From a virus (taxonomy: Duplodnaviria > Heunggongvirae > Uroviricota > Caudoviricetes), in IMG/VR virus record IMGVR_UViG_648276647_000004, positions 1-43,461 of that record: 43,461 nt of DNA. The stretch is one strand, 5' to 3'. Shown here piece after piece: positions 12,001 to 15,000 of this stretch. Position numbers: made by a program. Position 1 is the stretch's first letter. Each line of letters opens with the position of its first letter.

Positions 12001-15000
12001 GAAAACCTTCTCCTGAATGCCGCCAGAAAGCCATACAAAGCGAATTTCAAAGGTCATGAATGGCATCTGCAACCCGGTCAACTGGTTGTGACAGCAGCTG
12101 ATTTAGGTCTTCAGTTATGCGACAGGCATGGCAAGCCGGCAAGCCGTGATCAGGTTGAGCGGATGCTTCAGGTTTTTGTGAAAGAGGGGATGATCACCAT
12201 TGATGGAGAGAAGCAAAAAGGTCGTGTGATCACCATCACAAATTACCATGAATATGCTCAAAAAATGGACAATTCACCCGCACATGAAGCCGCACAAACA
12301 ACCGCACATGATGCCGCACATGATGAAGCCAGTAATGGCGCGGCTTTCAGCGTACATGCCGCACATGAAAGCGCACATGAAGCCGCACAAACAACCGCAC
12401 ATCATGAACAAGAAGGTATTAACAAGAATATAAATAATACCCCCCTACCCCCTAACGGGGGCGGTGATGGGCAGGTTAAACCTGAACGTCGCAAGGCAGA
12501 ACGAATCGACTACGAATCCTTCCTGAACGCCTACAACACCGAAGTCGGTGACAGACTGCCACACGCTGTTGCGGTCAACGAGAAACGAAAACGCCGCCTG
12601 AAGAAAATCATCCCTCAACTGAAAACGCCAAACGTTGACGGTTTCAGAGCGTATGTCAGGGCGTTTGTGCATCAGGCTAAGCCGTTTTACTTCGGAGACA
12701 ACGACACGGGCTGGACGGCCGATTTTGATTACCTGCTGAGGGAAGACTCGTTAACGGGAGTTCGGGAAGGGAAGTTTGCAGACAGGGGGATTGCATGAGA
12801 CAGGATATCGAAGCGAGCGTTATCGGTGGCCTGCTGATTGGTGGATTAACTCCAACCGCCAGCGACGTTCTGGCAACGCTGGAGCCGGAAGCGTTTTCAA
12901 TTCCGCTCTACCGGAAAGCCTTCGAGGTTATCCGCAAGCAGGCGCGAAACAGAAACCTAATCGACGCGCTGATGGTTGCCGAGGAGTGCGGAGAGGAGCA
13001 TTTCACGTCAATCCTGATGACCAGCAAAAACTGCCCGAGTGCCGCAAACCTGAAGGGATATGCCGGAATGGTCGCGGATAACTATCACCGCCGTCTGGTG
13101 CTGGAAATCATGGACGAAATGCGTGAACCAATTCAGAGCGGAACCATCGACGCATCGAGTCAGGCGATGGATGAACTTGTAAAGCGTCTCTCAGCCATCA
13201 GAAAGCCCCGTGACGAGGTTAAACCGGTACGGTTGGGGGAAATCATTACTGACTACACTGACACGCTTGACAGGCGTCTGAGGAACGGAGAAGAGTCAGA
13301 TACCCTGAAGACCGGAATCGAAGAACTTGATGCCATCACCGGAGGGATGAACGCGGAAGACCTGGTGATAATCGCTGCTCGTCCTGGTATGGGGAAAACC
13401 GAACTGGCTCTGAAGATTGCCGAAGGCGTTGCAAGCCGCGTTATTCCTGGTTCTGACGTCCGGCGCGGGGTATTGATTTTCTCAATGGAAATGAGCGCAT
13501 TGCAGATTGCAGAGCGAAGCATCGCCAACGCCGGGAGGATGTCGGTTAGCGTGCTGCGAAATCCTGCATCGATGGATGACGAAGGCTGGGCGCGTGTTGC
13601 TAACGGCATGAGTCAGCTTGCAGATTTGGATGTATGGGTAGTCGATGCCTCGCGGTTATCGGTCGAAGAAATACGCTCAATCGCAGAACGGCACAAACAG
13701 GAAAATCCAAACCTGTCACTCATCATGGCGGATTATCTTGGCCTGATTGAGAAGCCGAAAGCAGACCGCAACGACCTCGCAATTGCTCACATCTCAGGAA
13801 GCCTGAAGGCGATGGCGAAAGACCTGAAAACGCCTGTTATCTCCCTAAGTCAGCTTTCGCGCGATGTTGAGAAGCGACCAAACAAACGCCCGACAAACGC
13901 AGATTTGCGTGATTCAGGAAGCATTGAACAGGACGCAGACTCAATCATCATGCTCTATCGGGAAGCTGTATATGACGAGAACAGTAGCGCCGCGCCATTT
14001 GCTGAAATCATCGTGACGAAAAACCGTTTTGGCTCGCTTGGTACGGTTTACCAGCGGTTCTGTAACGGACACTTTGTTGCATGTGACCAGGATGAAGCCA
14101 GACAGATTTGCACAGCATCAAATGCACCTGCTGCGCGTGGCAGAAGATATGCACAAGGGGCTGACGTATGACCATCTACATCACTGAGCTAATAACAGGG
14201 GCTATTTACACAGTAGCCCTTTTTTATTGGATTAAGAACGAGGGGGATCCTGATGGACACCGTTAACGGAATGTGTTCAGACGCACCGCGTGCCAAAAAA
14301 TGTAAATGCGGAAAATCACCGACAATATTAGACATGGAGAACGGGTGCCAAATCTACTGCGCTAACCACGCCGCTGTGGCGGCCGCGAATTATCGCAGTG
14401 CGGTAACGGAGTGGAATAACCTGAAATCTGTTAGAGAGGGAAGTCATGAAAAAACTAACCTTTGAAATTCGATCTCCAGCACATCAGCAAAACGCTATTC
14501 ACGCAGTACAGCAAATCCTTCCAGACCCAACCAAACCAATCGTAGTAACCATTCAGGAACGCAACCGCAGCTTAGACCAAAATCGGAAGCTTTGGGCTTG
14601 CCTTGGTGACGTTTCGCGTCAGGTTGAATGGCATGGTCGATGGCTGGATGCAGAAAGCTGGAAGTGCGTTTTTACAGCAGCATTAAAGCAGCAGGACGTT
14701 GTTCCTAACCTTGCCGGGAATGGCTTTGTGGTAATAGGCCAGTCAACCAGCAGGATGCGTGTAAGCGAATTTGCGGAGCTATTAGAGCTTATACAGGCAT
14801 TTGGTACAGAGCATGGCGTTAAGTGGTCAGACGAAGCGCGACTGGCTCTGGAGTGGAAAGCGCGATGGGGAGATCGGGCTGCATGACTATCAAATCAAAT
14901 ACGCCAGCACACGACAAGGACTGCTGGCAAACGCCGCTTTGGCTTTTTGATGCACTGGATATTGAGTTTGGATTCTGGCTGGATTCGGCAGCGAGCGACA

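Follow-up and report, generated by a model that had tools for sequence, protein, structure and literature searches.

The presence of a replication origin within the gene for its own initiator is a well-established theme among lambdoid phages: it is textbook knowledge for lambda, in which ori lies inside gene O, and the same arrangement has been inferred for phages P22 and L (PMC6022878, PMC8022706). Here we consider a locus of this kind in a 43.5-kb window (by which we mean the whole analyzed stretch, 43,461 nucleotides of IMG/VR record IMGVR_UViG_648276647_000004), a mosaic lambdoid phage for which the best single phage record covers at most 38% of the first 25 kb. Comparison of sequences indicates that positions 12278-12439, in which an array of short direct repeats is followed by an AT-rich tract, are very probably the phage's replication origin, embedded in its own O-like initiator gene.

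The lambda origin, which consists of the iterons ITN1-4 and the High-AT-rich region, offers the most familiar point of comparison. As in lambda, the proposed origin is found midway along the initiator gene, where the N-terminal, origin-binding part of the protein gives way to the C-terminal, partner-binding part; the AT-rich unwinding region is promoter-distal to the repeats, and the N-terminal domain belongs to the Pfam family Phage_rep_O. Small natural in-frame deletions within the origin region are likewise common to both (for lambda, PMC6022878). The differences concern the repeats and the partner protein. Lambda has four 18-bp iterons with dyad symmetry, whereas the window has eight 12-bp direct units in two clusters, with a conserved spacer and an AT tract of 33 bp each; and the partner in lambda is lambda P with host DnaB, whereas here it is a phage-encoded DnaB-type helicase, resembling the P22 gp18/gp12 system. 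Indeed, P22 (gene 18 and gene 12) and HK97 (O, gp54, and P, gp55) both combine an origin binder with a DnaB-type helicase of the phage, as the window does.

Shorter repeats have also been described. Gene 18 of phage L contains six imprecise 11-bp repeats (TGTCCAACGGA, TGTCCAA), which have been named as the likely origin by sequence inference only (PMC8022706). Genes of the phage L type, including those of the relatives ST64T, HK629, and ENT47670, resemble the window in their short direct units in two clusters, their central spacer, their AT tract and C-terminal domain, and a homologous N-terminal domain (25% identity), but they differ in the core of the units (TGTCCAA as opposed to CCGCACAT), in their period (11 as opposed to 12 bp), and in their number (3+3 as opposed to 4+4). 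Among Stx phages, the Eru2 type of replication region, in which an O of the HK97 type is paired with a DnaB helicase, comprises Eru2A, a protein of 273 amino acids (aa) with a Phage_rep_O motif, and Eru2B, a protein of 458 aa whose three Pfam domains are those of the window helicase (PMC8044961). A further likeness is to the iteron replicons of plasmids such as pSC101, R6K, P1, F, and RK2, which also have direct repeats for their own initiator, an adjacent AT-rich unwinding region, and variable copy number. Plasmid iterons typically measure 17-22 bp and do not lie within the rep gene, and the initiators concerned are members of the Rep_3 or related families. In the window, by contrast, the iterons are intragenic, no Rep_3 match was obtained (Pfam, E<=0.01), and neither an exact DnaA box nor an integration host factor (IHF) consensus is present in 11600-13000.

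The anatomy of the array is clear-cut. The exact sequence CGCACATGA occurs five times in the window, all on the + strand and all within 102 bp (12279-12380), as opposed to a chance expectation of 0.48; none of 100 shuffles gave five copies. An earlier, sequence-only reading of this DNA had claimed at least six such repeats, which is correct if a near-exact copy is counted, as only five are exact and the sixth (CGCACATCA, at 12396) has one mismatch. The same reading had described two identical units of 30 bp, and there is indeed an exact repeat, of 31 bp (12279-12309 = 12372-12402), which reflects a higher-order module of 93 bp. Its expectation that the repeats would stand out from the background, and in a repeat finder, was borne out by these counts and by Tandem Repeats Finder (TRF), which returned two arrays of 12-bp period (12278-12323 and 12359-12402). 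Placed in register, the repeats form eight 12-bp direct units (12278-12406), arranged as 4+4 clusters and sharing an 8-bp core, CCGCACAT, i.e., CCGCACA(T/A), and the units have no internal dyad symmetry. The array is thus not of the lambda, P22, and HK97 style, in which there are about four iterons of 18-20 bp, each with an internal dyad. The likening of the locus to the lambda ori-in-O arrangement by the sequence-only reading is accordingly apt for the position within the gene, but not for iteron structure (12-bp direct units in two clusters, rather than four dyad-symmetric sites of 18-19 bp).

The AT-rich tract reported to follow the repeats was also recovered. Positions 12410-12439 have a G+C content of only 16.7% and are the least stable 30-bp segment of the O and helicase genes, within the top 0.07% across the whole window. 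As the sequence-only reading had it, the repeats and the AT tract are wholly contained within the initiator open reading frame (ORF; 11851-12798), and the peptide AHEAAQTTAH that it read in the linker is encoded twice. The identity of the gene is supported by a match of aa 20-132 to Phage_rep_O (PF04492; E 3.6e-15, 56.7 bits against a cut-off of 28.7), by its assignment to PHROG 345, 'replication initiation O-like' (1.2e-100), and by DNA about 98% identical that is annotated as O or replication protein in CUS-3, JEP4, and Stx2a phages. Within the protein, the repeats come after an ordered N-terminal domain (aa 30-137) and before the C-terminal domain (from aa 218).

A key finding from our comparison with relatives is that the layout of the array is conserved even as the core of its units changes. 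A scan of one genome per species yielded 47 Enterobacterales loci with N-terminal identities of 48-85%, and 47 arrays were parsed, counting the window and Klebsiella and Yersinia phage genes. Nearly all of them have n+n units (3+3 or 4+4) with a 12-bp period and a distance of 45 bp between the unit that closes cluster 1 and the one that opens cluster 2, and the two clusters are nearly always equal in unit number. In 45/47 arrays the final unit ends in CATCATG, after which come AACAAGAA and the AT tract. The units fall into two core classes, CCGCACAT in 23 loci (the window included) and CCG(C/A)GCAT (CCGCGCAT) in 24, which are almost never mixed within a locus. Other cores are found in Salmonella phage S.Inf 5-2 (N-terminal identity 53%; 3+3 of CGAT(G/A)A), Enterobacter phage ENT1 (46%; 3+3 of G(T/A)CGA(A/G)), and Cronobacter phage ENT47670 (25%; 3+3 of TGTCCAA, with an 11-bp period). 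Five core types (CCGCACAT, CCGCGCAT, CGATGA, GTCGAA, and TGTCCAA) therefore pair with five N-terminal types, and the AT tract keeps its position across all of them. Also conserved, in the 47 species-level loci as well as in relatives with different iteron cores, is a sequence in the middle of the spacer, CCAGTAATGGCGCGG (12329-12343), including several wobble positions. What is conserved could be the encoded peptide, (A/P)SNGAA, or else a DNA site at which a host factor or the helicase acts.

The number of clusters is itself subject to natural variation. Initiators differ in length by modules of 31 aa (93 bp, in frame), with observed lengths of 284, 315, 346, and 357 aa (the last counted from an internal Met; the four-cluster form corresponds to 377 aa). 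These length variants correspond to one to four clusters, the two-cluster form being by far the commonest, and a 93-bp in-frame deletion is present in two IMG/VR loci. Variation by 93-bp modules is the pattern expected of unequal exchange between repeated modules.

Could these units be real initiator sites, and yet mainly regulatory, acting in titration or handcuffing, autoregulation, or incompatibility while replication starts elsewhere? Plasmid iterons and lambda ori fragments supplied in trans are known to titrate initiators (PMC3349717), and the present data map no replication start. We nevertheless consider a mainly regulatory array unlikely, as no DNA in the replication module is less stable than the adjoining AT tract, which holds its place next to every iteron type, and as there is no second cluster of the core anywhere else in the 43-kb window. 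In addition, regulatory and origin roles are not exclusive.

Further evidence for an origin comes from the protein that is presumed to bind it. An AlphaFold2 model built on a 17-sequence alignment predicts, with moderate confidence, that the N-terminal domain is winged-helix-like: aa 30-137 have predicted local distance difference test (pLDDT) values of 70-88, and helices at aa 82-88 and 99-111 are followed by a beta hairpin (115-129). Residues 138-217, which take in the segment encoded by the repeats and the AT tract, have pLDDT values of 22-34, and this segment is predicted to be disordered. A sequence search of the PDB gave no match at E<=1. At the fifth base of the core, 23 loci have A and 24 have G, and this division is mirrored in the N-terminal domain, in which aa100 is D in 23/23 A-class loci and H in 24/24 G-class loci, and aa82 is A or P in the A class and S or T in the G class. 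Columns 82 and 100 thus separate the two classes without exception. The model places aa82 first in the first helix of the helix-turn-helix and aa100 second in the presumed recognition helix. Taken together, these comparative data suggest a testable specificity code, in which D100 would read A, and H100 would read G, at core position 5. With this co-variation, the array shows each of the features of the lambdoid ori-in-O class for which sequence-level tests were run (the domain, the position of the repeats, the AT tract, and co-variation), which is consistent with its membership in that class.

The same data bear on whether the repeats are instead kept for the sake of the protein, as a repetitive His/Ala-rich flexible linker with a role in metal binding, spacing, or protease recognition, the repetition of the DNA having arisen by slippage and the origin lying elsewhere. 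The segment is, after all, translated and predicted to be disordered, its length varies naturally in frame, and the wobble sites of the core are not significantly protected among near-identical relatives. We regard a purely linker role as very unlikely, however, given that relatives retain the number, phase, and position of the units yet encode unrelated peptides (AHEA, PDEPCDK, VEGSDEP, and CPTNVQDLS in different types), and that the class of core goes with the identity of residues in the DNA-binding domain. Synonymous codons in the units are nearly fixed and switch in concert between GCA and GCG: Ala is encoded by GCA in 133/134 cases in CCGCACAT-class units, compared with 22% elsewhere in the same genes, and by GCG in 111/113 cases in units of the sister class, compared with 18% elsewhere. 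Similarly, His is encoded by CAT in 247/248 cases (56% elsewhere), and C precedes the core in 309/310 units, at what is the wobble base of a Pro, Ala, Thr, Ser, or Gly codon. The size of this codon effect leaves little room for an explanation purely at the peptide level. Among 65 near-identical haplotypes from IMG/VR, moreover, polymorphism is higher in the repeat segment than in any other part of the gene (46/141 sites, as opposed to 39/423 in the N-terminal domain), non-synonymous changes are many and reach their peak there, and the core positions are less often polymorphic than the non-core positions (12/63 vs. 34/78, p=0.002).

That the repeats are kept for a real small His/Met/Pro-rich protein, encoded in the ATG-initiated alternative-frame ORF of 61 codons that spans the array (12248-12433), is scarcely credible, as this frame is broken within the array in 17/46 related loci, many of which have no upstream ATG, and no PHROG family matches it; the sequence-only reading was right that the ORF exists and that the repeats account for it, since it results incidentally from units without a stop codon in that frame.

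The AT tract is also where the modules of this replication region meet. In megablast comparisons with phage records, the initiator gene splits at the AT tract, with joints within 12422-12434. Full-length matches of about 98% were found in CUS-3, JEP4, HF4s, and 48 Stx2a phages. HK97, mEp213, 2851, 1717, ST104, and BTP1 share only 12422-12798, the match (about 96%) running on into the helicase, and in these phages a DnaB-type helicase gene is always next. Klebsiella and Yersinia phages, on the other hand, share only 11898-12434 (about 80%), which is followed by another C-terminal domain and then by a lambda-P gene (PF06992) in place of the helicase. Because matches split at this point, the N-terminal domain and the repeats are co-inherited, as are the C-terminal domain and its partner protein, and the AT tract is the joint between them.

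HK97 provides a particularly clear example of such exchange. It resembles the window, as do 2851, 1717, and ST104, in its AT tract, C-terminal domain, and 458-aa helicase gene (about 96% identical DNA), but its N-terminal domain is of another branch, and its O gene (L002 1393-1477) contains four 18-bp dyad-symmetric sites, ATTAGCCAAGTCGGCTAA, spaced 20-24 bp apart, where the window has its array of 12-bp units. Immediately downstream of the HK97 dyad sites come an AT tract and a C-terminal module that are 96% identical to those of the window. Since this module is shared, two architecturally different arrays, one of short direct units and one of 18-bp dyads, have been exchanged upon it.

How might such an origin operate? 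By analogy with lambda and P22, we postulate that the initiator, transcribed from the early rightward operon, would recognize the 8-bp core CCGCACAT through the helix-turn-helix of its winged-helix-like N-terminal domain, with aa 82 and aa 100 taking part in recognition. Several initiators may then fill both clusters of four head-to-tail units, with their 12-bp spacing and 45 bp between clusters, to form a nucleoprotein complex that would distort the DNA and destabilize the adjacent 33-bp AT tract. The C-terminal domain, carried on the disordered linker that the iterons themselves encode, would recruit the phage's DnaB-type helicase to the opened DNA. On B-DNA, a spacing of 12 bp would rotate successive units by about 50 degrees, which would favor a spiral or wrapped arrangement over the dimers on dyads of lambda. 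It is tempting to speculate, although we do so tentatively and think it rather less likely than not to be borne out, that origin recognition here follows a mode distinct among O-family initiators, in which winged-helix domains are set head-to-tail at a 12-bp phase on two equal clusters, the spacer CCAGTAATGGCGCGG that these flank is itself functional (serving, for instance, a host factor or the loading of the helicase), and specificity can be re-programmed by one or two residues (A82S, D100H) that match a single base of the core (CCGCACAT to CCGCGCAT).

Several observations weigh against reading 12278-12439 as an origin of this kind, or lessen the force of the evidence for it. Literature searches gave no binding assay, origin mapping, or plasmid assay for this replicon type, and the binding mode is not simply transferable from lambda because the units are without the dyad symmetry of the lambda, P22, and HK97 iterons. 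One-cluster variants occur naturally, so that either three units suffice or such prophages are defective. A Foldseek search with the model gave winged-helix proteins as best matches (CodY, CRP, MarR, ArsR, and eS25), but these were weak (E>=0.05), and none reached E<=1e-3. In a neighbor-joining tree built without columns 82 and 100, the G class arises twice (in a main clade, and in a Yersinia vastinensis locus nested among A-class relatives), and the association of D/H100 with the core, which rests on only two independent transitions, is suggestive and not proof. The p-values for codon choice overstate the evidence, because units in one locus are not independent, being related by gene conversion and recent duplication, and because units were called by a tolerant sequence score. 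Among the 65 haplotypes, polymorphism at core wobble positions was not significantly lower than elsewhere (8/27 vs. 34/161, p=0.33). Lastly, cumulative GC and AT skew, which we considered as evidence for an origin, change sign at about 10000-12000, coinciding with the divergent cI/cro early promoters; the skew is uninformative with regard to the origin because its minimum reflects the direction of transcription.

Some further candidate elements near the array were set aside. A lone extra core, CCGCACA, near the 5' end of O (11885-11891) is probably due to chance, and the same leader occurs in S.Inf 5-2, whose iterons differ. Three TGATCA sites upstream of the iterons (12148-12232) were considered as a SeqA/Dam feature, but this GATC cluster is not conserved, as relatives have 0-2 such sites. 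The G+C palindrome just past the AT tract is kept in HK97, S.Inf 5-2, and, in modified form, ENT1; as an analog of the lambda ori palindrome it was rejected, since shuffled sequences fold as well as this region does (z = -0.52).

The proposed origin and its surroundings are laid out in Table 1. The small ORF between cII and O occupies a place corresponding to that of P22 orf48 and HK97 gp53. The start of the helicase gene overlaps the stop codon of O (ATGA, 12795-12798), which suggests translational coupling of initiator and helicase, and ninB and other genes follow the helicase gene. Two ORFs of the nin region, both on the + strand, also drew our attention. The first (14823-15410, 195 aa) encodes an NPPY motif (IWNNPPYS), and NPPY motifs are typical of N6-adenine DNA methyltransferases. 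The second (15728-16234, 168 aa) encodes an HNH-like motif (IDHINGVRSDNRLSNLRLVTHQQN) and, to judge from this motif, has the look of a homing endonuclease (HNH or AP2-type) that has become inserted between nin genes. GATC is scarce in the window, with 93 sites where its length alone would lead one to expect about 170. A tandem repeat of 2.5 copies of 19 bp (TAGACCAGCGCATCATAAC; TRF score 52), located close to the right end of the window (42889-42935), has no relation to the origin.

Table 1. Features of the proposed origin and neighboring early genes, in window coordinates
Feature	Position	Strand	Sequence or remark
cI repressor	10134-10841	-	early region
cro	10920-11147	+	early right operon
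cII	11254-11553	+	early right operon
Small conserved ORF between cII and O, 90 aa	11576-11848	+	PHROG 2519 (unknown function), full length, E 1.9e-57
O-like replication initiator gene, 315 aa, holding the whole proposed origin	11851-12798	+	Pfam, PHROG
Coding region of N-terminal domain (presumed origin-binding), aa 1-141	11851-12273	+	Pfam, AlphaFold2 model
Alternative-frame ORF, 61 aa, rich in His, Met, Pro, Lys	12248-12433	+	by-product, not gene; open in 29/46 loci
Iteron cluster 1, four 12-bp direct units	12278-12325	+	core CCGCACA(T/A)
Unit 1	12278	+	CCGCACATGAAG
Unit 2	12290	+	CCGCACAAACAA
Unit 3	12302	+	CCGCACATGATG
Unit 4	12314	+	CCGCACATGATG
Spacer between clusters, 33 bp	12326-12358	+	
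Degenerate ninth unit closing the spacer	12350-12358	+	GCGTACATG
Iteron cluster 2, four 12-bp direct units	12359-12406	+	
Unit 5	12359	+	CCGCACATGAAA
Unit 6	12371	+	GCGCACATGAAG
Unit 7	12383	+	CCGCACAAACAA
Unit 8	12395	+	CCGCACATCATG
AT-rich tract, 33 bp, directly after last unit (presumed DNA-unwinding element)	12407-12439	+	AACAAGAAGGTATTAACAAGAATATAAATAATA
Coding region of linker end and C-terminal domain (presumed helicase-recruiting module)	12440-12798	+	sequence comparison
G+C palindrome just past AT tract	12448-12461	+	CCCCC-TAAC-GGGGG; hairpin predicted
DnaB-type replicative helicase gene, 458 aa	12795-14171	+	Pfam DnaB_C 9.3e-78; DnaB N-terminal domain 1.8e-13

The ori-in-O arrangement is already known, and the interest of this locus is accordingly modest, consisting in the division of the array into two clusters, the candidate D100/H100 specificity switch, and the conservation of the spacer. 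In the searchable literature, whose coverage mostly leaves out subscription journals, we found the CCGCACAT array nowhere described, so that an earlier mention is possible. The textbook picture is unchanged by our analysis, but is extended to a family that has been without experimental study. This family is far from rare: the replicon type is very common in E. coli, Salmonella, and Stx2a-converting prophages, with 55 phage records, more than 450 IMG/VR matches, and protein clusters that have thousands of members.

The replication of Stx phages affects toxin output, and published Eru typing of their replication regions leaves origins aside and treats related modules at the protein level only. 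The comparisons made here point to exchangeable modules, in which different iteron arrays are swapped upstream of one module of AT tract, C-terminal domain, and helicase, with the AT tract as the joint. If, in addition, the array does embody a distinct and re-programmable mode of recognition, its relatives would constitute a natural set of orthogonal initiator/origin pairs, and would offer a tractable model for the evolution of replicon specificity in binding sites that are themselves translated.

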